The notes beneath the pieces are model-generated. The model was given only the letters and a program-made list of their open reading frames with translations. It was not told the DNA's origin and searched no databases. A stretch of 25,506 bases of DNA from a virus (lineage: Duplodnaviria > Caudoviricetes): the IMG/VR virus record IMGVR_UViG_3300032047_000116, positions 1 to 25,506 of that record. One strand, 5' to 3'. Of this stretch, positions 1,777 through 21,313 are shown in pieces (the first letter of the stretch is position 1; each line of letters begins with the position of its first letter). A program made the position numbers and the translations under genes.

Positions 1777-1783
1777 GTGGGGT

Positions 1784-2389
1784 TCACCATCCTATGTGGT
1801 ATTCTTCAATCAAACCTGTCTCTTCATTACGGCCTTTCACAAAGCCTTCGTTTCTTCCATGAAGAAACAAGTCATGATTGAGTTTGCAGTCTGCTATGCA
1901 GTATTTGATAACCTCAGCGTATCGCCCTTCTTTCCAAGCGACGGGCGCGTCTGCTGAGTCCATAATTTCCTTTCCTTTACCGAGTGTATGCTTGCACAAC
2001 GAATTAAGGTGGTGGCTTTTGCCACACGCGCTTCTCAGCGACCAAGAAGTATCGACCATGCTATCCTTCTTGTTGAGAAGAACACCAGCATAGTGCATGT
2101 CAAGCGCGTCTCGGAGAACGGGTAAGTCGAAGCCTCGGATGTTGTGTCCAACCACGATACCTCCCTCGTCAACATGCTTCTTGAGGTGCTCACCAAGTTC
2201 ACGGGGATGGAGAGGGTGCATGTGCGCGTCTGCTACAATTACATCGTCAGCCTTGCTAAACACATGTGCTTCTTCACCATCCCATGTAGCCACAACTGTT
2301 GGCTCAAACAGGTGAGTGTTTCCCCACCCTCCAATCTCATGAGAGAAATTAGCCGTTTCAATATCAAGTGCCATTACTTTATTGCTCAT
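1784..2389 (-). CDS. DEDD/RNase H-like 3'-5' exonuclease (RNase_H_2/PolB-exo-like)
   Basis: ExoI ALDIET, ExoII GHNIRGFDLPVL and ExoIII YCIADC. Likely ATG at 2389. Confidence 0.85.
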   Translation of the reverse strand: MSNKVMALDIETANFSHEIGGWGNTHLFEPTVVATWDGEEAHVFSKADDVIVADAHMHPLHPRELGEHLKKHVDEGGIVVGHNIRGFDLPVLRDALDMHYAGVLLNKKDSMVDTSWSLRSACGKSHHLNSLCKHTLGKGKEIMDSADAPVAWKEGRYAEVIKYCIADCKLNHDLFLHGRNEGFVKGRNEETGLIEEYHIGW

Positions 2390-2391
2390 AC

Positions 2392-3816
2392 TCAATCCTC
2401 CTTGAAACGGACATACACAGAGTTGCCGACACGGTAGGTGGTGAAAAGACCTTCCACATCTTTGAACCGCTTGTAAACAGTCGGCTTGCTCTTTCCGAGT
2501 TGGTTAGCGTATCGGTCAAACATGTCGTTCTTGAGAACCCAACCGCTACCTCTACCTTCAATGTCACTGCTCTTGCAGGCTTTGAAAGCGTTGCTCCATT
2601 CATCTTTGCGCGCGGCTTTCTCAGCGGCTTTGGCTCCAACCTCAACTTCGGACTCAAGCCAAAGAACAAGTTGTTCGTAAATGTCGTAAAGAATTTCAGT
2701 TGCCATCTCAACATCGTCGCCAGTGACTTTCCACTCACCGTCAACAGGTGTATCGTCGCGCATCACTCTCATCAAAGCAAGGTGTGTTGCGAAAACAACA
2801 GTGTAGTTGAGGATGTTGGGGATGAAAGAACAAACAACATCCGACAAATGCTTCTCCATGCCGCGAACCAGTGTGTAGTATTCTTCGACGGAAGCGAGCA
2901 CTTGAGGCTCAAAGGAAGCGTCGATGGTAAACATCTCCTGCATGCAACCTCGCGCAACCTCTTCCTTTCCAGCAGGAGTGAGTCCTTCCCATGCATCTTC
3001 CGTCATGTTTGAAAGAAGCAAGAGGCGCTCTTGGGTTTTGATTTTGATTTCTTTGAAGTGGACTGCAATATCATCGAGTGATTGCACTTCAGTCAACTTG
3101 TTCTTGAAAACACCAGCCATCCTGCGCTCCGATACCATTTGTCGCATGTCATCGCTCCACGGTCTGTAAAGCAGCAAAACACGCTGGAACAATCCTTTGG
3201 TCAAAACATACTCTTTCACTCCACTCGGAGGGAATGATGTAATCCAAAATGATACGCGGGATTCTGTTTCCACTTTACCGTTCTTCATGTGTTTAGTCAA
3301 GGTATTACTGTGACTTCCGACAGGATTCATCGCTTGTTGTAGGTACAAGATAACTTCCGAAAAGAATTGCTTAGGGTTGGATTGAAGAAGGATTGAACCT
3401 TCATCAAAATTCAAGCACTTGTTACCGCCAAGCAACCCTTCGTTCTGCACAAGTTCGTATCCTCCATCGCCGTCACTCACTGAGTCAATTGACCCTATTA
3501 GCGCGCTGTCTGTTCCACTTGTGAACATGTCAATGTTCAATCCTGCTTTGTCTGCTACTTCGCCTGTAAATTCCCAAGCGATTGACTTACCGGACCGCGT
3601 TGCTTGAATCCAAAACACATGGATTCTTGGGTCAAGTGCCGAAGCCCATACGGGGATTCGCACATAGTCAACAAGGGCTTGCCCTTGTAGGTAGAAGAAG
3701 GAAATGAGGCCGGGGACTTCGTTGAAAAACGAGGTCGTCCGAAATCTCTCAAGGTATTCCTTCATCATCGGGTATTCTTTCACTGCGGTGTACTGGTTCC
3801 ATTGTCTTTGGGGCAT
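2392..3816 (-). CDS. MCM-like AAA+ replicative helicase (divergent, short N-terminus, C-terminal wHTH)
   Basis: HVFWIQATRSGKS (Walker A variant), MCM-like TSGTDSALIGS followed by YELVQNEGLL, Walker B LNFDEG, LQQAM, GLFQRVLL (Arg finger) and VTGDDVEMA. Confidence 0.7.
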   Translation of the reverse strand: MPQRQWNQYTAVKEYPMMKEYLERFRTTSFFNEVPGLISFFYLQGQALVDYVRIPVWASALDPRIHVFWIQATRSGKSIAWEFTGEVADKAGLNIDMFTSGTDSALIGSIDSVSDGDGGYELVQNEGLLGGNKCLNFDEGSILLQSNPKQFFSEVILYLQQAMNPVGSHSNTLTKHMKNGKVETESRVSFWITSFPPSGVKEYVLTKGLFQRVLLLYRPWSDDMRQMVSERRMAGVFKNKLTEVQSLDDIAVHFKEIKIKTQERLLLLSNMTEDAWEGLTPAGKEEVARGCMQEMFTIDASFEPQVLASVEEYYTLVRGMEKHLSDVVCSFIPNILNYTVVFATHLALMRVMRDDTPVDGEWKVTGDDVEMATEILYDIYEQLVLWLESEVEVGAKAAEKAARKDEWSNAFKACKSSDIEGRGSGWVLKNDMFDRYANQLGKSKPTVYKRFKDVEGLFTTYRVGNSVYVRFKED

Positions 3817-3867
3817 ATTTTCTGTCTCCTTTGGGGGGCGGATGACTCTTGGGGTATGGTGGTCAGC

Positions 3868-3890
3868 CTATAACCATTTCTTGTTTTATC
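3868..3890 (-). promoter_or_regulatory. Candidate archaeal BRE/TATA promoter for the helicase-exonuclease-thermosome operon
   Basis: The minus strand reads AAAACAAGAAATGG-TTATAG about 53 nt upstream of ATG 3816, with an AGGAG RBS before the start. Confidence 0.4.
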
Positions 3891-3902
3891 AATTATCACT
3901 AT
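3889..3902 (-). repeat. 14-bp motif ATAGTGATAATTGA (copy 1) in AT-rich intergenic island A
   Basis: The + strand TCAATTATCACTAT is the exact reverse complement of 15015-15028. Confidence 0.85.
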
Positions 3903-3952
3903 GTTGTTATAAGGATAAAAGATTGTCTTTTTACAGAGAGTAATCATAATAA

Positions 3953-4642
3953 TCACTTCTCTATGCGAACTTCTTGTTCGCTTGTGAGCACTTGCGTAAC
4001 TCTGTTGCGCAACACCTTCCCCATACGGGGAACATCGCGCAAACAATCTCCACATGCGGCTTCTTCAATAGAACCACATGCTTTGAGGATAGCGTCAACC
4101 ATATCGGGGCCGATGCCGGGTATTGTTATCAACATATCAGCGCGTACATCGTTTGTACTAACGCGGCGTACTGCTTGCGCTCCATGCCGACTTGCTTTTT
4201 TGTAGGTTTTCTCATGAAGGGCGACCATGAAAGCCGCCGCTTCACTTGCGTTGGGTGCTCGATAGATGAGGCAACCGAAATCGGCAACCACTCGACCGAG
4301 GAATCCAGTCATTTGCTTAAGGGCTTGACTGGCTGTTATTGTTGAACCACGGTCGCGCGCTCTGCGGACATAACCTGCTATGTCTCCCCATATCACTAAA
4401 CCGTAGTTCCCATCATTAGCGTCCATGTTATCCAACTGACGCATGAGGTGTCCTGTTCTCATGGATGAGAAGAGGTCGTCAACGCTCTTGGCTTCGATGA
4501 GCCAGTCACCACATTTGTAATCTCCATTGATGAGTTTTTGTCTCAACACATCAATACGGGGAGAGCGTGATTTCGCGCGTCGCTCAAGTGCTGAAACAAG
4601 AGAGCCACGCTCGTTGGTGTCAATAATGAGAGGTGGTTTCAT
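3953..4642 (-). CDS. ERCC4/XPF (Hef/Mus81-like) structure-specific endonuclease with C-terminal HhH motifs
   Basis: IIDTNE, GDY and IEAKSVDDL (ERKxxxD-like) motifs; HhH motifs IPGIGPDM and VPRMGKVL. Confidence 0.9.
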   Translation of the reverse strand: MKPPLIIDTNERGSLVSALERRAKSRSPRIDVLRQKLINGDYKCGDWLIEAKSVDDLFSSMRTGHLMRQLDNMDANDGNYGLVIWGDIAGYVRRARDRGSTITASQALKQMTGFLGRVVADFGCLIYRAPNASEAAAFMVALHEKTYKKASRHGAQAVRRVSTNDVRADMLITIPGIGPDMVDAILKACGSIEEAACGDCLRDVPRMGKVLRNRVTQVLTSEQEVRIEK

Positions 4643-4887
4643 TTAACCAATCTCCAAACTTTAACATCGTAATTCTGCCCGTGACCAGTATCATCAATCA
4701 CGCGCTCTTCGCCTGCTTCCGCAAATTCCTTTGACCTGCTGAGTAAGTTGCCTAAACTCGGCATACTTGGGGCAGTGCGAGGCCATCGTTCTTTGAGAGT
4801 GTAGTATAAATTAGCGGTGTTCATATCTCCTTCTTTGAGAATCTTGATTATGCGATTTATCGTTATAATGTTTCGTCGCTTCTTCAT
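4639..4887 (-). CDS. Small winged-helix DNA-binding protein
   Basis: ATG 4887 overlaps the primase stop. The pattern IIKILKEGDMNTANLYYTL...PSMPSLGNLL...VWRL is wHTH-like. Confidence 0.6.
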   Translation of the reverse strand: MKKRRNIITINRIIKILKEGDMNTANLYYTLKERWPRTAPSMPSLGNLLSRSKEFAEAGEERVIDDTGHGQNYDVKVWRLVK

Positions 4888-5966
4888 TGACCCACCTCGA
4901 ACTCTCCTGTCCCATCCCATAATTGACAGCGACCGACACAAAGACCTTTCCCAATCAAACTTTCACAGCGTTCCATGTATCCTCCATCAACGATGGAGCG
5001 TATTTGATACTCGGTGACAGAGGGGTCGTAGTCAGCCCACTGAAGCGTCTTGATGAAATTATGAAGGGTCAACATGTGCTTCTCTCTCATCTGCACAGTG
5101 GTTCGTTGAACAGGAAGGAAGTTTCGCAATCGCGATGCAAGGTAAATTGCAAGACTCGCGCGACTGATATGCGGAGGGTTGCTACCGACTTGGCAAGCAG
5201 ACTCCATGAGGCATGGAAGAATCTTGATGCCCCCCATCTTGACAGTATCGAACTCGACTGGTTCGCCTGTGACTTTGAATTGGCTTTTCTTCACTTCGGA
5301 TACTGGCAAATTAACACCCTTTGTTCCATAGAAGAAAGCAGTGTTGCGTGGCTCTTGAGCCATGTCACATATCTGCTCCCATGACAAAGTAAGCAACTCG
5401 TTACTTTCAAGCGGAATGCTCCATCGGAGCACATGTTGTTTAGCGTTGTAAGAGTTGGGGACTCGTATGACTCGCGCCATGTCAAATGGAACGGTCGGGT
5501 CCATGCAATACAATTCCATGTCTTTCTTCCACTTGTTGATGACTTTCTTCCCTGCCGCTTTAATGTGAGACACTTGCGCACCAGTGGATGGGAGATGAGT
5601 CTTGTCAAGGGAAATCCAAATGTGAAATCCATTGCCGCTAAACCAAACACCGTGGTTGATGTTTTCTTCCAGCAGGTATGCTTGGAGACGACGAACTTGC
5701 TCAACAACCTCATCGCCGTCAACCTCAACCATGTTGCTCCCTTTGCGGTACTTCTTGTCAAAGTCCAGCACGAAGTTGCTGACAACAGCGGTGTTGTATT
5801 CCGCGCGCCGTCCGTTAGGCTTCAATGCTCGGAAGCCATAAACCGACATGTAAGCGCACTGCGAGTTTTCAAGGCTCTTCCAGTATCTTTCAAACTCACT
5901 TTGGTTGTGAACAATTTTTCGGAATAGACCGACTTCTTTAGGAAAGTCGAACTTAAGGGGTTTCAT
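4884..5966 (-). CDS. Archaeo-eukaryotic primase: catalytic PriS domain fused to a PriL-like Fe-S C-terminal domain
   Basis: AEP motifs LDFD, FSGNGFHIW and DMARVIRVPNSYN. C-terminal LPCL..., PPHISR and YMERCESLIGKGLCVGRC resemble the PriL C-terminal domain. Confidence 0.88.
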   Translation of the reverse strand: MKPLKFDFPKEVGLFRKIVHNQSEFERYWKSLENSQCAYMSVYGFRALKPNGRRAEYNTAVVSNFVLDFDKKYRKGSNMVEVDGDEVVEQVRRLQAYLLEENINHGVWFSGNGFHIWISLDKTHLPSTGAQVSHIKAAGKKVINKWKKDMELYCMDPTVPFDMARVIRVPNSYNAKQHVLRWSIPLESNELLTLSWEQICDMAQEPRNTAFFYGTKGVNLPVSEVKKSQFKVTGEPVEFDTVKMGGIKILPCLMESACQVGSNPPHISRASLAIYLASRLRNFLPVQRTTVQMREKHMLTLHNFIKTLQWADYDPSVTEYQIRSIVDGGYMERCESLIGKGLCVGRCQLWDGTGEFEVGQ

Positions 5967-6105
5967 CGGTATCAAACCTCATTCCAGCAGTGACAGCAAA
6001 CTCAAGCACCTTGTCGATGCAAGAGAAACAAACAGCGCGCTTTGCATATCGCATTGCTATACCACCCTTGTCCCATCCACACAGTTCACACAGTCTTCCG
6101 TTCAT
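5953..6105 (-). CDS. Zn-finger microprotein
   Basis: CELC...CFSC; ATG 6105 is coupled to the upstream stop; GAGGTGA RBS. Confidence 0.65.
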   Translation of the reverse strand: MNGRLCELCGWDKGGIAMRYAKRAVCFSCIDKVLEFAVTAGMRFDTDETP

Positions 6106-7022
6106 TCGCTCACCTCTATTGCATACTTCGGACATAGTTCAAGGTAGTTGCAATATCCACACTTGAAATCTTGCTTCGTTGGAGGGAAGTGATTGTCAAG
6201 ATACATCTTGATGAGGTCATTGAGGCGCTTCATCATTGCACGCTCACTGACTTTCTTGACAGGTTCAATCATCCAATGGTCGGCGGCTGAATATCGCCAC
6301 CCCCAATGGGTGACAGGTCTGTCAATGCCGCGCTCCTGTAAGTAAGCACTGTCGCAGTTTTCAATCAAGAATTTGTAGTAGGCCATTTCTTTCCTCATCT
6401 CCGTCGCTTTGTTATCCTTCCACTTACCCGTCTTCAACTCATAGAGCATGAGTCCACCATCTTCCGCTTCAAACACACGGTCAATGATGCCGACAAACTG
6501 CACAGGAACTATACCGTAGCCCACAATATCCATGTCAATCTTCACTTCAATACGAACTTCGTTCGCAAGGGGCATTGGATTCTTAGGGTTCATCTTCATA
6601 CGCGCGTTCTCAAACTCCATCAGCCATTTCATGTTTCGGTAGTAATCCTCATGATAGAAGGGGAAGTCTTTGTTCTCTGCGCGACGATTCTCAATGATTG
6701 TTTTCTCAGTTGGAATCATCTTCGTAAGGTATTCGCTCATGTCTGCCTTGTTCTTAGCAAGGTGTTTGATAGTCTTAATCAAATGTGGCTTTTTCTCAAT
6801 GTGTTGATAGAAGAGGTCAAGTCCGTTGTGAACATCGTCACCAAGAACAAGATGCTTGACCAAGCCTTGTGGCTTGCGGTAGTTTTGTTCAAGCCACATC
6901 TGTTGTACGCACCACCCAATCGAACCAGCGGTTGATTTACTGATGCGGATGATGATACCATCTTTACCCATTTCGGGAGTCCAGCAGTAGGATGAACCAT
7001 CGTCGTAAATCTTAGCAGTCAT
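6102..7022 (-). CDS. Cas4/AddB-like PD-(D/E)XK exonuclease with 4-Cys Fe-S staple
   Basis: N-terminal Cys (WCVQQ), LGDDVH, GIIDRV, YELKTG, EMAYY and C-terminal CGYCNYLELC. Confidence 0.85.
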   Translation of the reverse strand: MTAKIYDDGSSYCWTPEMGKDGIIIRISKSTAGSIGWCVQQMWLEQNYRKPQGLVKHLVLGDDVHNGLDLFYQHIEKKPHLIKTIKHLAKNKADMSEYLTKMIPTEKTIIENRRAENKDFPFYHEDYYRNMKWLMEFENARMKMNPKNPMPLANEVRIEVKIDMDIVGYGIVPVQFVGIIDRVFEAEDGGLMLYELKTGKWKDNKATEMRKEMAYYKFLIENCDSAYLQERGIDRPVTHWGWRYSAADHWMIEPVKKVSERAMMKRLNDLIKMYLDNHFPPTKQDFKCGYCNYLELCPKYAIEVSE

Positions 7023-7405
7023 TGAATCGCCCCCTCTTTTCTTTCAACACTGTATTCCTTGTAGCATTTACCACAAAGGCGCACCGTGAGTTTGCTGTGT
7101 TGAGGGAGGAAGCGTAGTGGTTTGGTCTTCTGCTTATCAACCCACAGGAGAGTCCCCTCTTCGTTGGCTCGTTGAAGATTATTGACGAGCCATTCTTCAT
7201 CTTCGTGAGGCCGGAAGCATGATTCGCATTGAAGGTGCGTGCAAATTTCACTGTCACAGTCGCCCACTTGGTGAGTCTCACCTACGCCTTCGCCACCATC
7301 ACACCAACAGTCACAGCCGTCATCCGAGCGATGACCGCATTCCAATGCGGGGTTTTGGTAATCGTCAAACGCGCCCCAGTTCATTCCGGGTGGATAATTA
7401 TCCAT
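7019..7405 (-). CDS. Cys-rich hypothetical protein (multiple Zn-binding motifs)
   Basis: CGH, CDCWC, CESC and CGKC motifs; GGAGGTG RBS before ATG 7405. Confidence 0.65.
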   Translation of the reverse strand: MDNYPPGMNWGAFDDYQNPALECGHRSDDGCDCWCDGGEGVGETHQVGDCDSEICTHLQCESCFRPHEDEEWLVNNLQRANEEGTLLWVDKQKTKPLRFLPQHSKLTVRLCGKCYKEYSVERKEGAIQ

Positions 7406-7697
7406 GAAACGCACCTCCGCCTTCGCCTCGGTCCATTTCACGCGACATGTTCCTCAATGCAATTTGCTTTGAGCGCTTGATACTTTCAGTATTAACCATG
7501 TAGAGTTCTTCATCAAGATTCGGCGTTCTTATTTTAACGACAGTGGCTTGAGGAATGAGGGTGTAGTAGTCATCCCCTCCTGTGTTTGTCTTTACCCCAA
7601 GATAGTCGCTGAATAGCGCATCTCCGAAAAAGAGTTCACCTGTCAGTTGCTTGACTTCTTTGGTTCCTGTTTCAAAATAATCAATCACGACTTGCAT
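7398..7697 (-). CDS. Hypothetical protein
   Basis: 99-aa ORF in the coupled operon with a GGGGTGA RBS. Confidence 0.65.
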   Translation of the reverse strand: MQVVIDYFETGTKEVKQLTGELFFGDALFSDYLGVKTNTGGDDYYTLIPQATVVKIRTPNLDEELYMVNTESIKRSKQIALRNMSREMDRGEGGGAFHG

Positions 7698-7817
7698 TCA
7701 ATCACCCCTCAATGTTTTAGTGATGCGTCTCTGCTTTTTGTGGCAATGCAAACACACTCCAGTTAGAGGATGTACCGCGTTCACAATTTTTGAGCATTTT
7801 TTGCATCTTCGATTCAT
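7698..7817 (-). CDS. 39-aa Zn-finger microprotein (not in ORF track)
   Basis: MNRRCKKCSKIVNAVHPLTGVCLHCHKKQRRITKTLRGD*. It has an ATGA overlap upstream, abuts the next ATG and exactly fills the gap. Confidence 0.7.
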   Translation of the reverse strand: MNRRCKKCSKIVNAVHPLTGVCLHCHKKQRRITKTLRGD

Positions 7818-8029
7818 GACTGTCCCACCTTTGTTGGCACATGCAGTCTATTGATGAGAGGCAGTTCGGGGAACATGTCTTGCAGTTCACTGATAGCGCG
7901 GGCTAACTTCGCAGTGTCCGTTGCGTTTGCGTAATCTACATCAAGTTGGTCGTTGAGGTCTTGAACGAGTTCTTCAAGTTCAATGATTCGGGCTTCAAGT
8001 TCTTTTTGTTTTTGTTCTGTTTTTGTCAT
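7814..8029 (-). CDS. Small coiled-coil protein
   Basis: Heptad pattern KQKELEARIIELEELVQDLNDQL; GGTGA RBS before ATG 8029. Confidence 0.65.
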   Translation of the reverse strand: MTKTEQKQKELEARIIELEELVQDLNDQLDVDYANATDTAKLARAISELQDMFPELPLINRLHVPTKVGQS

Positions 8030-8034
8030 GGTAA

Positions 8035-10386
8035 TCACCAATATGTTGCAGGTCGGGGTGCTCCCATTGCGGCTTCAAGGTCCCAACCTAAGACCTTGAA
8101 CATTGCTTTGATTTTGTTTTGAACGAGTTTTTCAATGACTGCTTTCTTGTCAATCTCAAACCCATCCAAGTCTTGTTCTTCACGATAGGCGGCATATTTT
8201 GTAGGAGGTTTCCCAATAGGAGGATGAGAAACATACAGGTATGCGACTGAATTGCCTTTCACGAATGCATCGCGTTCATCTTTGACGATGTGTTCATTGT
8301 AGTATTGTGCTCCTTGCGCGGCAGGAGTTTTAGAAGGGAACACGCCTATGCGTGTCCATTGGGTTATCTCCTTCAAGTCGTATTCACCACGACGGAGCGG
8401 CTTGACCATCTTAAGGACGGCTTCACGCACATCACCTTCGGAGGCTCCTGTGCAGATGAGTTCGAGCACAGTGCGTTCAGCACGCTTGCTGATAGGTGCT
8501 TTGCCGCTCCCCTTCATCAGTTGAGCGTTCTTCCATTTGCCTTTATCGGCTTCGGGATATGACACGATACCTGCATAGCGGTTGTTTGTCTCCAAATACC
8601 AATAGTCCATGTAAGCCTCAAGTTCCGCGAACAACTTTTTGTTCCCGGTCTGTTCTTGGACAACATCAGTCACGCGCTTTGCCAAACGCTCTGCATCTTC
8701 AAGAGGTACTTGAATGAAAGCAGAGTCGGTGAATCCGTAAATCACATTGTACCCCATGTCGGTAGCAACGGTGTCAAGAAGGGCGATGCATCTGCGACCC
8801 TCGGAGAGAATCGTTTCAGCAAGGTCCATGTCAGCCCAACCGTATCCAGCGTGCGCGGTTAATCCATATAGTGACGCCATGACGCGTTTTACTGCCGACT
8901 GTGTTGTGTTCCATGCGGCTCGCCCTTGCTTTGTTTTAGCGTCGCGCATGTTCTGTTTGCATACATCACGGTAGTCAAACAAGTAGTCAACGATGGTAGG
9001 AAGTATGCCCTTCTCACCTTGATACCAGTAAGTACCGTTCTCCATTCGCAGAACATCTTCGCCCGGTCCGTCACGCTTGGTAGTCCAGCAGAGGTTGTAG
9101 CCTGTCATGAGTGATGGGTACAGTCCTTTGTAATCCAGCACTGCGACATTCTCGTAAAGGCCGTTATCTTTCTTGATGAACTCAGCGCCCTTGAGGTCCT
9201 CTCGCTGAGCATTATATCGAGACGGGGCTTTCAATCCTGTTCGTCGGGAAATCAAACCGCGTGCAAAGTTCGTGACATTGGATACTGAACTCAGCGACAC
9301 GCCTGTTAGACGCACCATCTCGACAAAGAAGTCGGTCACATTGCGCGCTTCATCAATACCACGAAGCAGAACGGTGTCAAGCAAACAGTAGTCAACAAAC
9401 TCGGACCAATACTCATACCAGCCGTTGTGGACTGTCATGCCGTCAATCTCTTCGGTGAGTTTTGAACCAAGACCAAGCGTCTCTGCGATAGTATTCAACT
9501 TGAGGTTAGGTAGTTGACCACCACCACTGTCTTTCCACACGCGCTCGAAGCCTGTGCCGCTTCCTTCGGGAGCGGCGGTGTCAAACTGCCAGCGACCAGC
9601 AATAGGTTGAGCGTCGTATCGGTATCTCCCGCCCTTCTTTGGGTATCGGATAACACCGAGAGGACTCAACTTAGACGCGCCACCATGACCGTAAATCTTG
9701 TCAAGGCGTTCAATCATGTGGGGTATGTCAAAGAAGGTTCCCGCGTGAGCAATCATCATGTCGGGGTCGCGCTCTTGTAAGAACTCAATGAAGCCATCAT
9801 ACATTTCCTTCTCGGATTTGAACAACTTCAAATGATATTCTGTGTCACGAACTTTTTTGTTCATTGTGCCTTGAGGACTCAATCTGTTGAGGTGCGGACA
9901 GTTGGTGCGTTCGTCAGCCCATGCAAAGACAACGGGTGTGTCAAGGTCGGAGTCAATGACAGCGATGACAGTCGTAAAGTTGTCATCGCCTGTGTCACAT
10001 TCAATATCATACCACCACTTGCGCGGCTTCCACTTTGGCATTTCAGCAACATTGTTGATGAGGTATTGGTCGGGGAAGTACACATCAGCCTCGTAGGTTT
10101 TTGTGAAACCCATAGCCATGTTGCGTATGTCATAAGGTGAGTCAGCCTCAACCTTCAGCAACTTCGTCTTATCAAGAGCAGTGAATGTCTCGCCTTCAAC
10201 TATTTGCGCAGTAGGGAAACTGCGAAGCATTTTCTTGATTCGATATTCCGGCGTGTGTGCAGGAAGGAAGAAGTGGGGTCTGTAATCCAACTGACGGTGT
10301 TCAAACAAGGCTCTGCTTTCTCCACCGCGCCATCTTGTATAGACAGTAGGTGGTCCATCGTCGTGATAAATCGCATCGACAATCAT
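8035..10386 (-). CDS. polB: Family B DNA polymerase
   Basis: ExoI YDIECD, ExoII FFDIPHM, ExoIII YCLLD, region II LDYKGLYPS, region III KRVMASLYG, region I YGFTDS and NRYAG. Confidence 0.96.
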   Translation of the reverse strand: MIVDAIYHDDGPPTVYTRWRGGESRALFEHRQLDYRPHFFLPAHTPEYRIKKMLRSFPTAQIVEGETFTALDKTKLLKVEADSPYDIRNMAMGFTKTYEADVYFPDQYLINNVAEMPKWKPRKWWYDIECDTGDDNFTTVIAVIDSDLDTPVVFAWADERTNCPHLNRLSPQGTMNKKVRDTEYHLKLFKSEKEMYDGFIEFLQERDPDMMIAHAGTFFDIPHMIERLDKIYGHGGASKLSPLGVIRYPKKGGRYRYDAQPIAGRWQFDTAAPEGSGTGFERVWKDSGGGQLPNLKLNTIAETLGLGSKLTEEIDGMTVHNGWYEYWSEFVDYCLLDTVLLRGIDEARNVTDFFVEMVRLTGVSLSSVSNVTNFARGLISRRTGLKAPSRYNAQREDLKGAEFIKKDNGLYENVAVLDYKGLYPSLMTGYNLCWTTKRDGPGEDVLRMENGTYWYQGEKGILPTIVDYLFDYRDVCKQNMRDAKTKQGRAAWNTTQSAVKRVMASLYGLTAHAGYGWADMDLAETILSEGRRCIALLDTVATDMGYNVIYGFTDSAFIQVPLEDAERLAKRVTDVVQEQTGNKKLFAELEAYMDYWYLETNNRYAGIVSYPEADKGKWKNAQLMKGSGKAPISKRAERTVLELICTGASEGDVREAVLKMVKPLRRGEYDLKEITQWTRIGVFPSKTPAAQGAQYYNEHIVKDERDAFVKGNSVAYLYVSHPPIGKPPTKYAAYREEQDLDGFEIDKKAVIEKLVQNKIKAMFKVLGWDLEAAMGAPRPATYW

Positions 10387-11144
10387 TGGTCAACACCTTC
10401 TTGGTGCTTGAGGATAAGCATGCAGTCCACTTCTTGGTGCTTGAGGATGAGAGCACTCTCTTTCCCAATGAAGAACTCAACATCACCACTGCCCATAACT
10501 CTCAATAGTTTAGGAAGAACTGACGAGAAGACAGTTTCAATCTTATCGAAGACGGGCGAACAGTCAACATCAATGACCCTGCTCATGCGAGCACCGCGCG
10601 CACTTCCGACGGTCACGGTCATCTCTTGTGTGTGCATGCTGATACGAACAGGTGCATCTTTGGAAGTTGCTTTGGTCATAGCGTCAAGACCATGCAGGTC
10701 ACTCATGGTTAGAGTTCCGCGACATTGTATATCAGCGCGCCCTAACTTCTTGTAGCCGCTCTTCTCGAATCCTGAGATTGCAAACCTTGCTCGCGCAACA
10801 GTTAGATTGGATAGAACTTCAGTGTAGGTAGGAGTGCTGTATTGGTCGTTTTCATTGACCAATGTCAGCACGCCTCCTACATGTCGAATGCTTGTGACAG
10901 CCCCTTTGCACGCCTTGAGGAAAGCGTTCACCTTGTCAAGTTGAGGGATGAACACATCACCCATGTTGTATGTATCTCCCATGTTCACAACGATTGATTT
11001 GTGAACATAGTGGGTATCAACATCAGCCCAACCTGTCAACTTCATGTCTTTGATTTGACAGAAGAGGTCATTGACGCCTTCACCGAAGCCGGAAATAAAC
11101 CCGCGCAACAAATCTGTGTTGAAACTCGCTTGAGCCAGCGTCAT
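10383..11144 (-). CDS. PCNA-like sliding clamp (divergent)
   Basis: About 253 aa, with a repeated alpha/beta pattern compatible with a clamp fold. It lies directly upstream of polB and a clamp loader is encoded nearby. Sequence motifs are weak. Confidence 0.6.
   Translation of the reverse strand: MTLAQASFNTDLLRGFISGFGEGVNDLFCQIKDMKLTGWADVDTHYVHKSIVVNMGDTYNMGDVFIPQLDKVNAFLKACKGAVTSIRHVGGVLTLVNENDQYSTPTYTEVLSNLTVARARFAISGFEKSGYKKLGRADIQCRGTLTMSDLHGLDAMTKATSKDAPVRISMHTQEMTVTVGSARGARMSRVIDVDCSPVFDKIETVFSSVLPKLLRVMGSGDVEFFIGKESALILKHQEVDCMLILKHQEGVDQ
10397..10448. repeat. 19-bp direct repeat (33-bp period) encoding LILKHQE twice at the clamp C-terminus
   Basis: cttcttggtgcttgaggat at 10397-10415 and 10430-10448. 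Confidence 0.85.
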
Positions 11145-11299
11145 TCGTATGCCTCCCCATTCAGCGTCATGTAAATCGCAATGCAATCTTCGCAAATAGG
11201 CGCATCGGAGTCGTCACCCACAGATGCGTAGTCGCCTATCGCTCCGCAGAGTCTTGGTTTCAGTAGTCCTTTAATGTGAATCACCTTTTGTTTCTTCAT
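11141..11299 (-). CDS. 52-aa Zn-binding microprotein (not in ORF track)
   Basis: MKKQKVIHIKGLLKPRLCGAIGDYASVGDDSDAPICEDCIAIYMTLNGEAYE*. GAGGTGA RBS; its stop overlaps the clamp ATG. Confidence 0.7.
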   Translation of the reverse strand: MKKQKVIHIKGLLKPRLCGAIGDYASVGDDSDAPICEDCIAIYMTLNGEAYE

Positions 11300-11645
11300 C
11301 TTTTTCACCTCTCGGTACATATCGCAAACACACGCAGTCGTAAAAGAAAATGACTTCTTCTCCTTCCTTCATCATGCGTTCTTGGACCGCGCCACCGCCT
11401 GCACATTGCGTGCATTTCGGGTCGGGGACCACTTGCCAGTCAATGAAAATGCAATCGCATGGGTGGTTGACGAACTCAACATCAACACACTCCCCTTCGT
11501 AGTTCCGAACGGGTTGTTCAATGATGTATTCACCAGTACCTCCACAGGCATTGCAGTCGGGGTTCGCTTCGTAGCACGGATTGTCTTCAAGACTTCTCCC
11601 TGTGGCATTGTTGTGCGCAGGTGTCCCTGTGGTTTTCCAAGCCAT
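11271..11645 (-). CDS. Protein with two DnaJ-type (CxxCxGxG) zinc-finger repeats
   Basis: NPDCNACGGTG...PCDCI and DPKCTQCAGGG...DCVCL. Confidence 0.7.
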   Translation of the reverse strand: MAWKTTGTPAHNNATGRSLEDNPCYEANPDCNACGGTGEYIIEQPVRNYEGECVDVEFVNHPCDCIFIDWQVVPDPKCTQCAGGGAVQERMMKEGEEVIFFYDCVCLRYVPRGEKDEETKGDSH

Positions 11646-12670
11646 CAAACTTCACCCTCTCGTAGTTCCGGTAGTCCAAACCACTGAGGCGCTTCGTCCT
11701 TCTTCGTCACCATGATGGTGCGTCGTTGGTCAAGCAAGTTAGGGTTGGTCTTGATTTTAACGAACTCAACTTCGTAGCGTGTCTCACCTGTTGGTGAGTT
11801 ATCTTCACCGCGCACTTTCTTCTTGTGGAAGTAGAGGATTTGGTTGAGGTAGTTCGCAGTGTGCTTTTCCCATGATGGTTTCTTACCAATCACATTGCCA
11901 CTCTTGTCTTGCAGTTCCTTGAAGTGAGTCTCAAAGTAAACATTCACGCCGAGGGACATGAGCGTCCGAGCGATGGTGGTGAGTTGGTGGAAACGCGTAG
12001 TACGAATCTGCCAGTTGAAGCGGAGTCCGACTTGCTCATGAGGCTTAACCTTCGCACCAATGCCATCGGGTGCAGTACCCAAGTCTTCGATGAACATGCA
12101 GTTCTTAGCGACTTCATCCCAAAGGTCAACCGCAGTGATAAGCACTGAGTGAAGACGAGGTTTGTCTCCGGGGCGTGCGGCCCAATCAACAAGCGTCTGT
12201 CCAATTTTCATCACGCGTCGGTGAGTTGCAGGATAGTCGATGGCTTCACGAATGTCACCATCAGCGTCAGTTTGTTGGAACATGACATTCGGACTGAGGC
12301 AACGGATGTTCTTGGCATGCTCGCGATGATGTGTGACGCGGGTGGTTTGTCCGCCACCATCAAAGTCCAACACGAAGATAACATCCCCGCGCTTCTTATC
12401 TTCTTCACTCATGCTGTCGAGTACGATGCCTGTCTTACCAACACCTTCGGGACCGATAAGGCCCATGAAAATTTGACTCGTAGGCACTTCGTCACCAGCG
12501 TTGACGATTTCGTCCCACACGGATTTAGCAATAGGTTGCTTGACGGGCGTGGTAGGGGCTTCAATCATCTCCCCGGTAGTCGGGTCAAATGGTGCGTCGG
12601 TTGTATGTTGGGGTCCAACCTTTGGGTGTGTCAGTCGGGCTTGGTTTTTCAAATCTTTTAGGTTAGGCAT
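11645..12670 (-). CDS. RecA-superfamily/AAA_24 (Sak4/RadA-like) ATPase, probable recombinase or annealing protein
   Basis: Walker A GPEGVGKT, followed by VLDFDGG and VYFETH. Adjacent to the SSB gene. Confidence 0.7.
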   Translation of the reverse strand: MPNLKDLKNQARLTHPKVGPQHTTDAPFDPTTGEMIEAPTTPVKQPIAKSVWDEIVNAGDEVPTSQIFMGLIGPEGVGKTGIVLDSMSEEDKKRGDVIFVLDFDGGGQTTRVTHHREHAKNIRCLSPNVMFQQTDADGDIREAIDYPATHRRVMKIGQTLVDWAARPGDKPRLHSVLITAVDLWDEVAKNCMFIEDLGTAPDGIGAKVKPHEQVGLRFNWQIRTTRFHQLTTIARTLMSLGVNVYFETHFKELQDKSGNVIGKKPSWEKHTANYLNQILYFHKKKVRGEDNSPTGETRYEVEFVKIKTNPNLLDQRRTIMVTKKDEAPQWFGLPELREGEV

Positions 12671-12675
12671 GTTAT

Positions 12676-13986
12676 TCACTCTCCGTATTGGGTAAGGTTT
12701 GTGTCGCCGCCTTCACCAGCAGGGATAGCGAGGCGTGGGACTGCGTAAACACCGAAGGTCTTGATTGCAGGTTCGGGTCCGTCATCAGTGACGCGCACAC
12801 TCAATCGTCCGAAGACAATGACCGTGGACTTCACTGCGTATGGTTTCCATCCTTCATCGGTGGCGTAATCAAACGGGTGTCCGTCATCGCCAAGCACTCC
12901 GTGGATGTAGCAAGGTAGGTTCTGTCGGCGGCTTCCGTTGAATGTGCGCATGAGGTCAAAGGATGACAACGACATTGAGTAGTCGTGACCAATCGGGTCC
13001 CACTCAGTCTCGCGTGCTTCCTTTCGCATGTCACTGACTTTGCCTCTTACGAAGACAAGAGGTCCGACAGGGTTGTATCCGGGGACAATTTCTTGTCGCG
13101 TCTCAAAGACTTCGGCAAGTGATGAAATGTCCTTGATGTAAGCATGGAGTCCGGGGACAAGTCTGTCCGGTCGGATAACATCACGAATCTCTTCTTCAAC
13201 AAACTCGTTGCCGTAAGTGAAAGATGCAGGTAGTGGGTAAGCAGTGTAGGAATCAGCCCACTCCGGCTTGACATTCGCGCTTTGAGGTCGCACTTTGAGT
13301 GTACCTTCTTGGAACAGTTGAGGGATGAACCACTCATCGGGGTTCTTGGAAGTCACGCTGATGCGCAATATTCTTTGTTCGTTCAAGTAGTTGTCCTTGT
13401 CATTACCGAGGAAGTAGTAAGTTCGTTGGTGTCGGTAAGGTGTGATTGGCTCACCGTAGCGGGACCACTGTTGGTTGTTTTGAAGGATGGCGATGCTCAG
13501 TCCGTGTTCTTCAAAGAGGAACCACGGCTTGATACCGGATGATTCTTCGGTAGCCTTCGGTCCATCGACTCCCTCAAGCATCCACACACCGCTCTCGGTG
13601 TATGCGCGGGCCACAAGTCCATCTGCAACGGCCCCGTCAAGGTCATTCAATGCGGCTTGCACAGCAGGTCCGCGCTTTCGTTCTTGGCTGTCACGGACCT
13701 TCGGGTCAACACCGATGAAGTATCCGACGAGTTCAACTGCGTTGTTGGTTCCGCCACTCATGACGCGTCGCTCAACCACGAAGGTTTCTGCGGCATCAAT
13801 CATGAAGTCGTCTTCTTCATCTTCGGGGTTGTCAACACCGAGTTCGTTCTTGAGGTAGGTGAAGAAATCACCTGTCGCGTCATCAAGACTCTTTCCGTTC
13901 TTCTCAGCCCACCACTTAAGGCGTTCTTCCACATCGCTGTGGAGGCTGTTGTTGTTTTTGGCTTCAGTTTGGTTTAGGTTTGGCAT
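12676..13986 (-). CDS. RPA-like multi-OB-fold single-stranded DNA-binding protein
   Basis: OB-like strands VELVGYFIGV, VFVRGKVSDM and TVIVFGRLSVR. Acidic, and positioned between RFC and the recombinase. Confidence 0.55.
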   Translation of the reverse strand: MPNLNQTEAKNNNSLHSDVEERLKWWAEKNGKSLDDATGDFFTYLKNELGVDNPEDEEDDFMIDAAETFVVERRVMSGGTNNAVELVGYFIGVDPKVRDSQERKRGPAVQAALNDLDGAVADGLVARAYTESGVWMLEGVDGPKATEESSGIKPWFLFEEHGLSIAILQNNQQWSRYGEPITPYRHQRTYYFLGNDKDNYLNEQRILRISVTSKNPDEWFIPQLFQEGTLKVRPQSANVKPEWADSYTAYPLPASFTYGNEFVEEEIRDVIRPDRLVPGLHAYIKDISSLAEVFETRQEIVPGYNPVGPLVFVRGKVSDMRKEARETEWDPIGHDYSMSLSSFDLMRTFNGSRRQNLPCYIHGVLGDDGHPFDYATDEGWKPYAVKSTVIVFGRLSVRVTDDGPEPAIKTFGVYAVPRLAIPAGEGGDTNLTQYGE

Positions 13987-13988: not shown

Positions 13989-14879
13989 TTAGTCCTCCTT
14001 GTTTTTGTTTTGGTTTTTTGTGTGTAAGGTCGCTACGAAGTAGTCAATAAATGACTCACTTCCGAGGTCCCATTGGTTCATCTTCAAGACGAAATCTCCC
14101 CACACAGAGAAGAAGGTATATAGTTGTTCCGAGGTCATCCCTACGGTTTTCACATATTCGTGAATGCGACGCATGATGTATTGATGGGAAGAGCCTTCCC
14201 TTAGCATATTCAGCATGGTTCTGTGGGCAGACTCCCACTCATTTGCGGCCAAGTCGAGAGCCAATGAATCTAAATCATCTTGTTCTTCGGGGAACAATTC
14301 AAGTCCACTTAGAAGATGATTACCAATAGCGCGAAGGTCCCCACCGAACTGTGAATGCAGTACCTCGGCGCTGACCGTAGGTGAAATGCCTTGTCTAATA
14401 ATCAAGTGTTCAATATACGCGCGTACATGTTTTACTTCGTATGGTCGGAATTTGAACATGACGCATCGTGATTTGATAGCAGGAATAATCTTGCTTTGGT
14501 CGTTGCAAGTTAGTATCCACCAACAGTTGCTCTTCTCCATGATGCGCTTCAATGAATCTTGCGCAGGCTTGGTAAGACCGTCAGCCTCATCGAGTAAAAT
14601 CAGTCGCCCACCATCCCAAAGGTTGGTCGCTTGAGCAACTCGCTTCAACTTGTTTCGGATAAATTCAATACCGCGCTCATCACTTGCGTTGTATTCAAAG
14701 ACTTGCAGTCCGAGATATTCTGCTATAATGTAAGCGGCGCTTGTCTTTCCGAGTCCCGGCGCTCCGTGCAACAGGAGGTTTTGGGGGCTATCAGCATCCC
14801 ACTCGTCAAGGTAAAACAAGGGCATGTGTGGTTCGTTTGCTCCGATAAAATCGGTTAATTTTCGGCAGGTGAGTTTCAT
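13989..14879 (-). CDS. rfcS: Replication factor C small subunit (clamp loader)
   Basis: LLLHGAPGLGKTSAA, EYNASDERGIEFIR, ILLDEADGLT, AQDSLKRIME, CNDQSKII, IKSRC and GDLR. Confidence 0.93.
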   Translation of the reverse strand: MKLTCRKLTDFIGANEPHMPLFYLDEWDADSPQNLLLHGAPGLGKTSAAYIIAEYLGLQVFEYNASDERGIEFIRNKLKRVAQATNLWDGGRLILLDEADGLTKPAQDSLKRIMEKSNCWWILTCNDQSKIIPAIKSRCVMFKFRPYEVKHVRAYIEHLIIRQGISPTVSAEVLHSQFGGDLRAIGNHLLSGLELFPEEQDDLDSLALDLAANEWESAHRTMLNMLREGSSHQYIMRRIHEYVKTVGMTSEQLYTFFSVWGDFVLKMNQWDLGSESFIDYFVATLHTKNQNKNKED

Positions 14880-14924: not shown

Positions 14925-14952
14925 GGGGGGGTCCAGCGACCACTCTTTCTCG

Positions 14953-15030
14953 ATATTATCTTATTATTATTATAAGAATAATAGTATTACTTTCTTTATT
15001 AGAATGATAATAGAATAGTGATAATTGAAA
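14953..15030. other. AT-rich island B, candidate origin or regulatory element
   Basis: Very AT-rich relative to the coding regions, with TAT/ATA triplet runs, an imperfect palindrome TATTATCTTA...TAAGAATAATA, and ATAGTGATAATTGA at 15015-15028. Confidence 0.55.
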
Positions 15031-15047: not shown

Positions 15048-15410
15048 TCAATCTTCTCTATCTAACAGGTCGATGATTTCAGCAATCTCTTTGTGGGTAG
15101 GAGCACGCCCTTTGAAATCCATGAGCCTCACCATCTTCACCATGTTCTTCAAGTCATACACATGCTGTTTGACGGGTGACAGTATGCGGATGATGTGCCG
15201 TATCAATTCGGCATCCTTGAGGATTCGTGCATTGATACCCTGCGTGGCGAGCCACATGTTGAGGGCGGGTTCGTCCTTTCGGCTAACCAAGACGCGCCTC
15301 TCTACGCGGTAACCAATTCGTGTTTTCGGAGAGAAGTGAACGCTTAGTTGGAACCGACATTCTCTCGCCAGCCAACCGAGAAAGAAAGCGTCTTCATCCA
15401 TTCGGCTCAC
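15048..15410 (-). CDS. Single-motif LAGLIDADG-like protein
   Basis: FFLGWLARECRFQLSV aligns with the YLAGFxDGDGSI helix. It is followed by a basic hairpin, SPKTRIGYRVERRVLVSRKD. Confidence 0.55.
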   Translation of the reverse strand: MSRMDEDAFFLGWLARECRFQLSVHFSPKTRIGYRVERRVLVSRKDEPALNMWLATQGINARILKDAELIRHIIRILSPVKQHVYDLKNMVKMVRLMDFKGRAPTHKEIAEIIDLLDRED

Positions 15411-16711
15411 TTCTCCATCAAGTCACCAATCTGCATGGCATCCGACTGACCAAGCGTCGTGTCTATTCGTGCAAGATACGGAGCGCGCATCTTCTTAGTT
15501 TCCTCATCATACCCAAGAGAGTGGAAGATACCAATCATCCCCTCATCAATATCCATCATACCTTGCGCCTCGTAAAGACGAACCAACTTGTCGGGTATGT
15601 CATCCGCTTTCACATAGGCGTAACCCACAGGGAATGGGTCGAAGCCGTCGAGCGCGGCGAGTTTAATTCGTATGCCTTCGCCTTCACGAAAGCCTCCAAG
15701 TATCAGTAGCGGTATGTCAAATGTTCTTCTCGGCACAATAAATCCTCCAACAGCCCCACTGTGATAGTAGGGTCGTTCACCATCCAAGAGGCGCAAGGTT
15801 TCACCATCCTCTAAATGCTGAACGAGTGCTCTCAAGTGGGCGCGGTCTTCTACCTTCTTAGGATTCGTGGCCCGCGCGGTTCTGTTATCCTTCCATAGAT
15901 TCGGCTCACCCTCACGGTACAGCCATTCTACGATGTTCCCCTGTTCATCCATCTCACACACGCAATCGTCTTCACCCTCAATGAGAGGGGCGCGCGCGAT
16001 ACGAAGTCCTTGACGGTCATACGAGTATAGCCTTCGGCTCCGCCTGTGTACGAAGTAGTTTTTTCCTCGGACGATTTCGTAGTGTGTTTCTTTGAAGGGT
16101 AGTGACCATTTATTCCAGCGAGAATAGTTGGGCGCTTGGAAGGGATAGGTTGGTTGAATGGCATACTCAGTCGGGAGTGTGTTGTTTATGGCGCGTTGGA
16201 TAACTTCGCCCGTCGGCATGAGCGCACGCATTTGTTGAAGATGATTCGTGTCGTAAGGTGTGGTGAGCGCTACGGCTCTCATGATAGGGCGTTTGTTCAA
16301 CGCGCTCCGACCAAAACAGAAACCCCAAAAAAGCATCGCACTCAATTGCGACATTGACTGGAATAGAATGTCAGCGTTCATTTCATTCTTCAAAATCATA
16401 TCCTTGAACTCAATGGCTTGTCGAAGCGTTATTGATTCGGCTACCTCAGCGGGAGATTCGGATGCAAGAAGCGTAGGCATTTCTTGTTCGTCCATGAGCG
16501 CTTCGTATTCTTCGGGGAACAACCCATACGATTCGGCTAACATGGAGACAACATGGTGAGGTTTGATTGAACTTCGTGGACTTGCGCAACACAGTGTGAT
16601 AATATCGTGCGCATCCGATTCGTGTTTCGTGAAAAGGTCGGAGAGTATTTTCGGGTGCTTTGGTTCTGTTTGATGCGCCGCAACAACATTCGCCAAAGCC
16701 TCGAACTTCAC
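15407..16711 (-). CDS. ATP-dependent DNA ligase homolog, apparently catalytically degenerate
   Basis: Archaeal-ligase-like N-terminal DNA-binding domain, IQPTYPFQAP, YFVH...YSYDRQG, FDIPLLILGG, PVG and MRAPYLARID. There is no KxDG motif. Confidence 0.7.
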   Translation of the reverse strand: MKFEALANVVAAHQTEPKHPKILSDLFTKHESDAHDIITLCCASPRSSIKPHHVVSMLAESYGLFPEEYEALMDEQEMPTLLASESPAEVAESITLRQAIEFKDMILKNEMNADILFQSMSQLSAMLFWGFCFGRSALNKRPIMRAVALTTPYDTNHLQQMRALMPTGEVIQRAINNTLPTEYAIQPTYPFQAPNYSRWNKWSLPFKETHYEIVRGKNYFVHRRSRRLYSYDRQGLRIARAPLIEGEDDCVCEMDEQGNIVEWLYREGEPNLWKDNRTARATNPKKVEDRAHLRALVQHLEDGETLRLLDGERPYYHSGAVGGFIVPRRTFDIPLLILGGFREGEGIRIKLAALDGFDPFPVGYAYVKADDIPDKLVRLYEAQGMMDIDEGMIGIFHSLGYDEETKKMRAPYLARIDTTLGQSDAMQIGDLMEK

Positions 16712-17337
16712 TCTTCCTCATCCCCGCGCTCATTCGTGCGGAAGATTAGACCCCTCAAGTGTGGAGGCACTGCACGCCCGTTCCAGTTGGATGGCATGAT
16801 AACGACTGACGCGTCTTCAAGTTCCTTCATCATCGTGCCGCTGTCTGCTATCTCTATGATTTCACCGCGCTCAAGAACATTCATCCCATCCATAGAGAAG
16901 AACAATTCGTCACCGGCAATGAGGTGAAAGTCCATAGGCGCTAACTCCTGCTCGTCATCTTCGTGTTTAACCAGCACGCGCCATTCACCGTTCTCCAACT
17001 CGCGCCATTCAGCATTCTCCAAATCAAAATCAACAAGCGGTATGCCACTCTCTTCGTGTACCCATTGTTTCGCAGTATCTTGCGCGGCTTGCATTGGGTC
17101 ATCGACAACCTCAACTCCATCTGCATTCAGTGTGATTCCGATTTCAAGACACACTTTACCGATGCGCTCAAGAGGAAGGATGGAAGACGGGGTGGCTTTA
17201 GTGATGCGAAAACCATCCTCTTCTTTGACGAGGACTGCATCAGCGATGCCCCATGTATCTCCTACTTGCATTCGTTCGTAGTGGTCTTTCGTCCATTCAA
17301 TGTCTTCTGCCGTAGGCTCCCAACTATCTTCAATCAT
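16708..17337 (-). CDS. Acidic hypothetical protein
   Basis: 209-aa D/E-rich ORF, coupled on both sides. Confidence 0.7.
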   Translation of the reverse strand: MIEDSWEPTAEDIEWTKDHYERMQVGDTWGIADAVLVKEEDGFRITKATPSSILPLERIGKVCLEIGITLNADGVEVVDDPMQAAQDTAKQWVHEESGIPLVDFDLENAEWRELENGEWRVLVKHEDDEQELAPMDFHLIAGDELFFSMDGMNVLERGEIIEIADSGTMMKELEDASVVIMPSNWNGRAVPPHLRGLIFRTNERGDEEE

Positions 17338-20314: not shown

Positions 20315-20636
20315 TCTTCTTCACCTCGTTCCTTCATCCACGCTTCGTAGCCGATGAGTTCTGCGGTATCCCATCCTTCGGTGAGTAATCGGTCTGCCTC
20401 CCTCTTGCTAATGCCTGTGTTTTGCCACACTTCGGGATAGTAATCGGTCTTCACCCAAAGCGTGCCTGTCCCTCGGTCAGTATCGTAGGCCATGTGGTTG
20501 TCCGTCCAGCCGTGTTGCTTGAAGAAAGCCTCGGCCATCTCATCCCACGCATCAGCAGTTCGCTCAATTCGTTCTTCTTCCAGTTTCATGTATTCTTCGT
20601 ATCGTTCGTATGTCATGTTCATTCTTCTTCACCTCG
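20291..20636. repeat. 38-bp exact direct repeat flanking one small gene
   Basis: gtatcgttcgtatgtcatgttcattcttcttcacctcg at 20291-20328 and 20599-20636. Confidence 0.92.
20311..20622 (-). CDS. Hypothetical protein (cassette gene MNMTYERY...RGEEE)
   Basis: 103 aa; shares its first 8 codons with the SNF2 gene. Confidence 0.7.
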   Translation of the reverse strand: MNMTYERYEEYMKLEEERIERTADAWDEMAEAFFKQHGWTDNHMAYDTDRGTGTLWVKTDYYPEVWQNTGISKREADRLLTEGWDTAELIGYEAWMKERGEEE

Positions 20637-21146: not shown

Positions 21147-21313
21147 ACTCCCCCCTCCAATCGAAACCAACCTTCGCTGATGTGCAAGTCAAGTCGTTCC
21201 TCCGTCATAAACCACCAAGACATAGCGGGAGGCCATACATTAGAACACTCGGATTCAATCATGTATTCATCGTCGCCTGTGATGATAATTTGCTTGATAA
21301 TTTCATAACTCAT
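21143..21313 (-). CDS. 56-aa hypothetical protein (not in ORF track)
   Basis: MSYEIIKQIIITGDDEYMIESECSNVWPPAMSWWFMTEERLDLHISEGWFRLEGGV*. ATGA overlaps at both ends. Confidence 0.7.
   Translation of the reverse strand: MSYEIIKQIIITGDDEYMIESECSNVWPPAMSWWFMTEERLDLHISEGWFRLEGGV

Follow-up and report, generated by a model that had tools for sequence, protein, structure and literature searches.

A predicted DNA ligase fold with eroded catalytic motifs is conserved in the replication block of group A magroviruses

What does a virus retain when it conserves a protein that is built like a DNA ligase and has lost residues on which ligation depends? This question is raised by one gene in the 25,506-nucleotide stretch of DNA analysed here (the window), which had been read from its letters alone as a full-length homolog of archaeal ATP-dependent ligases with altered catalytic motifs (the original prediction). 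The Lys of motif I is essential for ligation, and it is this residue that the gene product, here called the pseudo-ligase, appears to lack.

Assigned by gene content, the window corresponds to the replication block in a group A magrovirus (Apasviridae), with marine group II archaea as hosts. It forms one minus-strand gene run in which PolB and a primase are accompanied by two nucleases (PD-(D/E)XK and ERCC4), a DnaQ-like exonuclease, an RFC-type ATPase, a thermosome and an SNF2 helicase (Table 1). The presence of PolB, clamp, RFC and primase together with a thermosome and an SNF2 helicase agrees with the group A description in the consulted portion of PMC5434244, where the latter two in combination are a trait of this group, whose members infect marine group II archaea. 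Pfam and PHROG matches identify PolB, the nucleases, primase and thermosome, with weak ones for PCNA and RadA; the SSB and MCM labels, which have no family match here, follow from position and from the gene list in the same portion of PMC5434244. The relatives used for comparison were IMG/VR contigs.

Several other features of the window were observed in passing. The primase frame (4884-5975) encodes 363 aa as compared with about 530 aa in several relatives (for example L054:11049-12638), which suggests a variable extension or read-through. Two related minus-strand ORFs of about 183 aa each lie at 20619-21170 and 22585-23133; of these, only the second has a Pfam match (pyrimidine-dimer DNA glycosylase, PF03013), and the first may be its diverged paralog. 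At 21630-22266, also on the minus strand, three consecutive short ORFs share their first six to twelve residues, which suggests repeated gene-start cassettes in the early region.

Table 1. Coordinates of the features discussed, numbered along the window
Feature	Position	Strand	Remarks
Pseudo-ligase, 434 aa	15407..16711	-	DBD-like helical domain ~aa 1-183, NTase-like 184-330, OB 331-434
Eroded motif I (aa 211-218)	16058..16081	-	Ile213 at adenylated-Lys position; Lys in 2/90 homologs
Eroded motif IV (aa 304-310)	15782..15802	-	Glu kept; adenine-packing hydrophobic replaced by invariant Arg307, Lys by Leu309
LAGLIDADG-fold protein, 120 aa	15048..15410	-	Overlaps pseudo-ligase stop by 4 nt
AT-rich imperfect inverted repeat, ~80 bp	14940..15025		Conserved; between LAGLIDADG-fold gene and RFC promoter region
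Clamp-loader (RFC) small subunit	13989..14879	-	Sole PF00004 AAA gene in 3/3 near-complete relatives
Rest of replication block	277..13986	-	SSB-like, RadA-like, PCNA-like, PolB, PD-(D/E)XK nuclease, primase, ERCC4 nuclease, MCM-like, DnaQ-like exonuclease, thermosome
209-aa ORF, no family assigned	16708..17337	-	Overlaps pseudo-ligase start; upstream in examined loci, not always adjacent

The pseudo-ligase ORF starts with GTG, contains zero internal stops and overlaps both the preceding and the following ORF by 4 nt. The protein found no match in Pfam, PHROGs, NCBIfam, PDB sequences or annotated phages, and ESM Atlas gave a lead only (PF04675, 0.84). Since these sequence searches returned no family, identification as a ligase had to rest on structure. 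A family alignment was assembled from 45 of 51 close homologs, six fragments being left out. The AlphaFold2 model has a mean pLDDT of 78.6 and a pTM of 0.51, which leaves the orientation of the domains uncertain, and residues 401-434 are weakly modeled. In Foldseek, the top six PDB matches are archaeal ATP-dependent DNA ligases (2cfm, E 5e-14); 83 matches reach E <= 0.001, and the best named viral ones are DNA ligases as well. A wide structural search (VIA) covering 48,161 chains returned Z 20.0 to 2hiv (401 residues aligned, rmsd 10.9) and Z 18.5 to 3gde, with single-domain values of Z 14.4 for the NTase domain (rmsd 2.2 over 146 residues) and Z 9.8 for the DBD; the corresponding scores against RNA ligases were about 6.5.

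Sequence profiles lead to the same family. As motif controls we used 107 homologs of the HGTV-1 ligase, all of which carry KxDGxR (107/107); the 25 with all three Pfam ligase domains formed the control profile and are motif-intact by sequence. Alignment of the pseudo-ligase family profile to these 25 three-domain ligases gave a probability of 96.6 over 427 columns, against 0.17 for a reversed control, and some distant members reach ligases by sequence alone (P0075, BLAST E 4e-8; G019, PF01068 E 6e-4). Taken together, the protein is predicted to keep the whole three-domain DBD-NTase-OB fold of an archaeal ATP-dependent DNA ligase, in the domain order originally proposed. With the LigI-type archaeal enzymes (2cfm, 2hiv, 3gde) it shares this predicted full-length fold, the order of the motifs and the Glu residues of motifs III and IV. 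It differs from them in being only 12-14% identical, about 120 aa shorter and acidic, in the deletion of several loops, and in the loss of the motif I Lys and Asp, the IIIa Phe, the motif IV Met and Lys, the motif V Lys and the RxDK of motif VI.

The extent of this loss was assessed in a census of 90 distinct family sequences, comprising close matches, 17 full-length distant members (from 34 representatives) and loci. In the profile alignment the Lys, Asp and Arg of motif I (KxDGxR) correspond to I213, R215 and N218. The Lys column holds Ile or Val in 83/90 sequences; the two that keep Lys there (L108:2527-3876 and L117:2795-4129) lack the motif III Glu. The Asp column contains Asp in none of the 90 and Asn in six, the motif I Arg persists in 46 and the motif Ia Arg in 55. 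By alignment, the acidic metal ligands of motifs III and IV are present as E253 (Glu in 82/90) and E304 (76/90). The Phe of motif IIIa is V261 (aromatic in 1/90), the Lys of motif IV is L309 (Lys in 0/90), and the lysines of motif V are V326 and R328 (Lys at the first position in 0/90, Lys or Arg at the second in 82/90); R328 alone remains of the basic residues of motifs IV, V and VI in the window protein. Motif VI aligns to D417-T-T-L420, within the weak part of the model, and its Arg is kept in 0/90. The motif IV position that packs on adenine in ligases, which is Met, Val or Leu in 25/25 motif-intact ligases, is Arg in 90/90 family members. Overall, no homolog keeps more than five of ten catalytic positions, as compared with 10/10 in each of the 25 controls.

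Candidate substitutes for the missing Lys were considered and rejected. K217, the Lys of RGKN, falls on the x of DGxR, a variable position at which 36/90 homologs have Lys; a register shift of one residue still supplies no Lys (column 214, 0/90), and columns 211-214 as a whole are free of Lys in 88/90 homologs. Words resembling KxDGxR, one in the viral primase and one in gene 10 of HGTV-1, were judged by eye to be due to chance. The altered motifs I, III, IV and V described in the original prediction are read identically in the profile alignment (I213, E253, E304, L309, V326 and R328), and its proviso that the RGKN Lys might occupy the adenylation site finds no support there. Motif VI is altered as it stated, although not where it was placed: the aligned segment starts two residues beyond the RIDT chosen earlier. 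Judged by these residues, the protein is built like an active ligase and fails the motif tests of that family, and it very probably performs neither adenylation nor ligation.

Nonetheless, the gene is not decaying in the manner of a pseudogene. Its median dN/dS is 0.15 (128 pairs with dS 0.05-1.5 among 41 sequences, the pairs not being independent), next to 0.17 for PolB, 0.18 for PCNA and 0.15 for SSB, and by this measure it is under purifying selection like the core replication genes. An unbroken frame and non-neutral evolution bear out the earlier view of an intact, coupled ORF, and the loss of motifs in a conserved, selected gene supports the repurposing of the ligase fold that had been suggested. 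In one locus (L109) the pseudo-ligase is split; four other replication genes there are split too, which indicates sequence errors rather than decay. The order pseudo-ligase, 120-aa gene, RFC, SSB, RadA, PCNA, PolB is kept among the loci listed and survives even in homologs (L187-L191) whose identity is as low as about 18%, with the exception of a clade (L192) in which RFC directly follows the pseudo-ligase. Distant family clusters come largely from marine datasets, on contigs of up to 115 kb. A scan of prokaryote genomes with one member (P0238) found no pseudo-ligase locus, and scans of viral contigs with P0072 and P0075 likewise found none. RNA runs yielded scattered short contigs only (share of words 0.13 or less, with one 167-nt piece inside the pseudo-ligase), which do not amount to evidence of expression.

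With respect to where conservation falls, the OB domain scores highest (0.80, versus 0.71 and 0.67 for the other two). Twelve residues are invariant in 23/23 sequences under 60% identity (L82, E85, S86, A125, W129, R307, G323, D355, G356, G421, D424 and Q427), none of which is a ligase catalytic residue; those of the OB domain and C-terminus (D355-G356, G421, D424 and Q427) do not belong to ligase motifs. The conserved C-terminus falls in a poorly resolved part of the monomer model. Within the NTase domain, Arg307 and R280 are invariant, and E253, H222 and W199 are conserved.

The original prediction had proposed a search for a second, active ligase elsewhere in the genome. Three near-complete relatives were read whole: G002 (98% complete), G004 (100%) and G003 (89%). 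Among their 4,520 frames none has an intact motif I, and each genome has the same two ligase-like frames, namely one pseudo-ligase and one NTase-OB domain within a protein of 1,870-2,016 aa. Fifteen partial genomes gave no ligase-like frame beyond the pseudo-ligase, and no NAD-dependent ligase was found in G002, the single genome searched for one. The second domain lies near the end of the giant protein (L057:14-6061, minus strand, equivalent to G002 72014-78061; also L195, L196 and L197). It is ligase-like by several measures (PF01068 E 3e-6 in G004, Atlas 0.94, profile probability 83), and it is through this domain that a further genome, G005, passes the Pfam ligase cut-off. Where motif I should have its Lys, 29/29 sequences have Tyr or Trp, and one of them has a Lys one place earlier. 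A second ligase-like gene thus exists but it, too, is without the motif I Lys, and on sequence grounds both ligases of group A magroviruses appear to be dead, with no live one besides. In G002 the giant protein sits between the portal and the prohead protease and is possibly a virion protein. The same genome holds other very long ORFs, of over 4,300 aa (L055:6893-19927 with L056:2-4222) and of 2,310 aa (L058:6996-13928); a Pfam scan of the latter returned no family above cut-off.

These two genes correspond in position to ligases already in the literature. In the parts consulted of Philosof et al. 2017 (PMC5434244) and its preprint, two ATP-dependent ligases are reported for groups A and B, and the replication ligase of group A is called a 'thermostable ligase'. 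That account and the ICTV Apasviridae profile (PMC12999244) place one of the group A 'ATP-dependent DNA ligases' among the replication genes and the other in the structural module, as we do, and we infer that the published replication-block ligase is the pseudo-ligase gene. The published account, as far as the consulted text goes, treats both genes as ligases, whereas both lack the motif I Lys here. A ligase is also listed in the ICTV profiles PMC12999244 and PMC10768690 and in the consulted part of PMC10160649. The stem 'inactivat' is absent from the portion of the journal text of PMC5434244 that was searched, and the word 'ligase' is absent from PMC11706807 (main text and two supplements) and PMC5332604 (main text); the consulted parts of PMC8651126, PMC11322364, PMC13645618 and 10.1101/2025.10.05.680483 hold nothing further on a magrovirus ligase. 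We found no report of group A ligase inactivation within this literature, a scope that takes in few subscription papers and no preprint supplements.

In terms of function, the pseudo-ligase sits in a fixed position at the head of the clamp-loader/SSB/clamp/polymerase block, and a role in replication is probable. The reading that we favor, at a probability of roughly 0.5, is that it serves the viral replisome as an adaptor subunit without catalytic function, with the host ligase sealing nicks. In the profile alignment to ligases, deletions or changes affect a DBD loop, the RvG segment, a glycine-rich OB loop and the groove-binding segment of the OB domain, and these are segments that we take to contact DNA in ligases. 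The protein has a net charge of -13 (44 close members range from -3 to -20 and 17 distant ones from -6 to -26), as compared with a median of +1 in the 25 control ligases. Charge is a weak guide to the role, in that two controls lie at -15 and -20, other proteins of the block are acidic too (SSB-like -21, MCM-like -13, PolB -8) and the NTase domain of the pseudo-ligase is itself +2. The loss of DNA-contact loops in an acidic protein favors a protein adaptor over a clamp that binds nicks.

Beyond its being conserved, catalytically eroded and in the replication block, the steps of this adaptor model are ones that we infer. The pseudo-ligase would dock onto other replication proteins of its own gene block, its OB domain and C-terminus making protein rather than DNA contacts, and the invariant Arg307 would plug the adenine pocket against Glu212/Glu253. 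The likeliest partner would be the clamp loader or the clamp, because the virus encodes a small RFC subunit and apparently no large one: each of the three near-complete genomes contains one PF00004 gene (the RFC small subunit), and no large RFC subunit was found in any of them. Nicks in the viral DNA would be sealed by the host enzyme; MGII archaea presumably have a ligase of their own. Against the adaptor stands the possibility that the gene's position was inherited from an ancestral active ligase, so that it need not mean a replisome role. Moreover, the loss is not clean, in that the motif III Glu, motif IV Glu, motif I Arg, motif Ia Arg and second basic residue of motif V are partly kept and L108 and L117 retain the motif I Lys.

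Two neighbors of the pseudo-ligase bear on the alternatives. The model of the 120-aa protein has a pLDDT of 91, and every Foldseek match listed for it is a LAGLIDADG endonuclease, at a best E of 1.7e-3 (none at or below 0.001) and a TM of 0.74 to I-Vdi141I. In the canonical LAGLIDADG catalytic helix a small residue precedes an acidic one; here the acidic residue is present in 34/34 sequences but the preceding small position is Arg in 34/34, and this highly conserved single-domain protein is possibly a domesticated DNA-binding protein. The second neighbor is the AT-rich inverted repeat, whose arms pair at 22/30 bases in the window, a value reached by 1/200 shuffles; of 11 copies tested, eight pass (2 or fewer of 200 shuffles) and three fail. 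A weak partial copy lies upstream of the MCM-like gene at window 3890-3950 (nhmmer E 0.31), and in one clade (L045, L052) the repeat is richer in GC, its arms having an 8-bp periodicity and the symmetry being kept. Skew gives no support to an origin at the palindrome: the cumulative skew of G002 turns near 35 kb, where transcription switches strand. The repeat could be either an origin or an operator.

In a broader scheme, two ligases and a homing endonuclease would have been converted to other uses: the pseudo-ligase and the LAGLIDADG-fold protein would fill vacant initiator and large clamp-loader posts at an AT-rich palindromic origin, a second dead ligase would be built into the giant head-module protein, and the virus would have no ligase activity of its own; as a whole we regard it as doubtful. 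The best-surviving rival to the adaptor, though unlikely, is an initiation module: the LAGLIDADG-fold protein would bind the repeat as origin, and its pseudo-ligase partner would open DNA or load MCM in place of Orc1/Cdc6. The two genes do adjoin in 45/45 distinct junctions and in 5/6 distant loci, the repeat is the lowest-GC 60-mer of the locus in 38/44 cases as well as beating shuffles in most copies, and the Cdc6 C-terminal domain is missing from 3/3 near-complete genomes. However, the clade represented by L192 brings the pseudo-ligase directly before RFC, the repeat is shortened or is not the lowest-GC stretch in 6/44 loci, and its three copies in G002 (970-1048, 20133-20219 and 94922-95006) each lie immediately ahead of a gene, a placement that would suit an operator equally. 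A predicted complex of the two proteins scored 0.00 (mark 0.32) and was not counted as evidence.

The nick-binding or DNA-encircling role raised in the original prediction is decidedly unlikely. A protein whose three domains still close around DNA might protect or mark nicks or ends, and in its favor all three domains are retained and three basic NTase positions (the Arg of motifs I and Ia and one basic residue of motif V) are partly kept. Against it, the DBD and OB loops through which a ligase would hold DNA are deleted or changed, the protein is net acidic, and tight nick sensing by ligases needs the adenylate.

It is improbable that the pocket has instead been remodeled as a binding site for a nucleotide or phosphorylated end, the protein being a ligand-binding protein or an altered enzyme working without Lys-adenylate chemistry. 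The conserved Arg307, R280, E253, H222 and W199 of the NTase domain would suit such a pocket, and snurportin-1, whose cap-binding domain is a non-catalytic use of the same nucleotidyltransferase fold, is among the structural matches (Z 10.7, rmsd 3.1, 142 aligned). Snurportin-1 differs from the pseudo-ligase in being a single domain, eukaryotic and a binder of RNA caps. Against a ligand pocket, the adenine-stacking Phe of motif IIIa is lost, E253 is absent in 8/90, and the OB rather than the NTase domain is the most conserved.

A decoy role, blocking the ligase or the PCNA of the host, was also raised originally and is very improbable. A ligase shape with an acidic surface would suit that purpose, but with no intact viral ligase in 3/3 near-complete relatives an inhibitor of host ligation is awkward, because the virus would need the host enzyme; conservation also resembles that of core replication genes and not that of a fast-evolving host-interaction protein. 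Finally, an active but very divergent ligase that uses another Lys or a partner in trans is scarcely credible: PMC12999244 and the consulted part of PMC5434244 list ATP-dependent ligases for group A, two members keep the Lys and the window protein keeps both Glu ligands, but columns 211-214 lack Lys in all other members, K217 is not conserved, the basic residues of motifs IV, V and VI are gone apart from R328, and the only other ligase-like frame also has no Lys.

The adaptor reading has a counterpart in poxviruses, in which A20 is an inactivated ligase acting as a processivity factor, according to the consulted parts of 10.1101/2022.11.22.517515 and PMC11142717. As described there, A20/A22 (OPG148) is, like the pseudo-ligase, a dead ligase in the core of a viral replisome that has diverged past sequence recognition; the pseudo-ligase likewise combines a predicted ligase fold and a disrupted active site with the standing of a core gene in a viral replication system. 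The same parts trace A20 to NAD-dependent ligases, of which its middle domain (NTase + OB) alone is ligase-like, whereas the pseudo-ligase matches three-domain ATP-dependent ligases including the DBD. The folds match weakly (Z 5.4 to the mpox chain 8wpf_B, as compared with Z 20 to archaeal ligases), and the magrovirus also encodes its own PCNA-like clamp. Analogy is likelier here than kinship, with an independent origin.

The exaptation of a viral pseudo-ligase is a concept already known, to which the present analysis adds a virus group whose two ligases both appear dead, with no active one beside them. It corrects the standing annotation of abundant marine archaeal viruses, whose near-complete replisome is listed as including one or two DNA ligases. 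Since both ligase-like genes of group A are without the catalytic Lys, lagging-strand sealing would depend on the host. Poxvirus A20 was the first dead ligase retained among the core replication proteins of a virus; the pseudo-ligase is a second, likely of independent origin, and is distinct from A20 in that the whole three-domain ligase body is kept. Together with the LAGLIDADG-fold protein, it is a testable candidate for two parts that these viruses appear to lack, an initiator and a large clamp-loader subunit.
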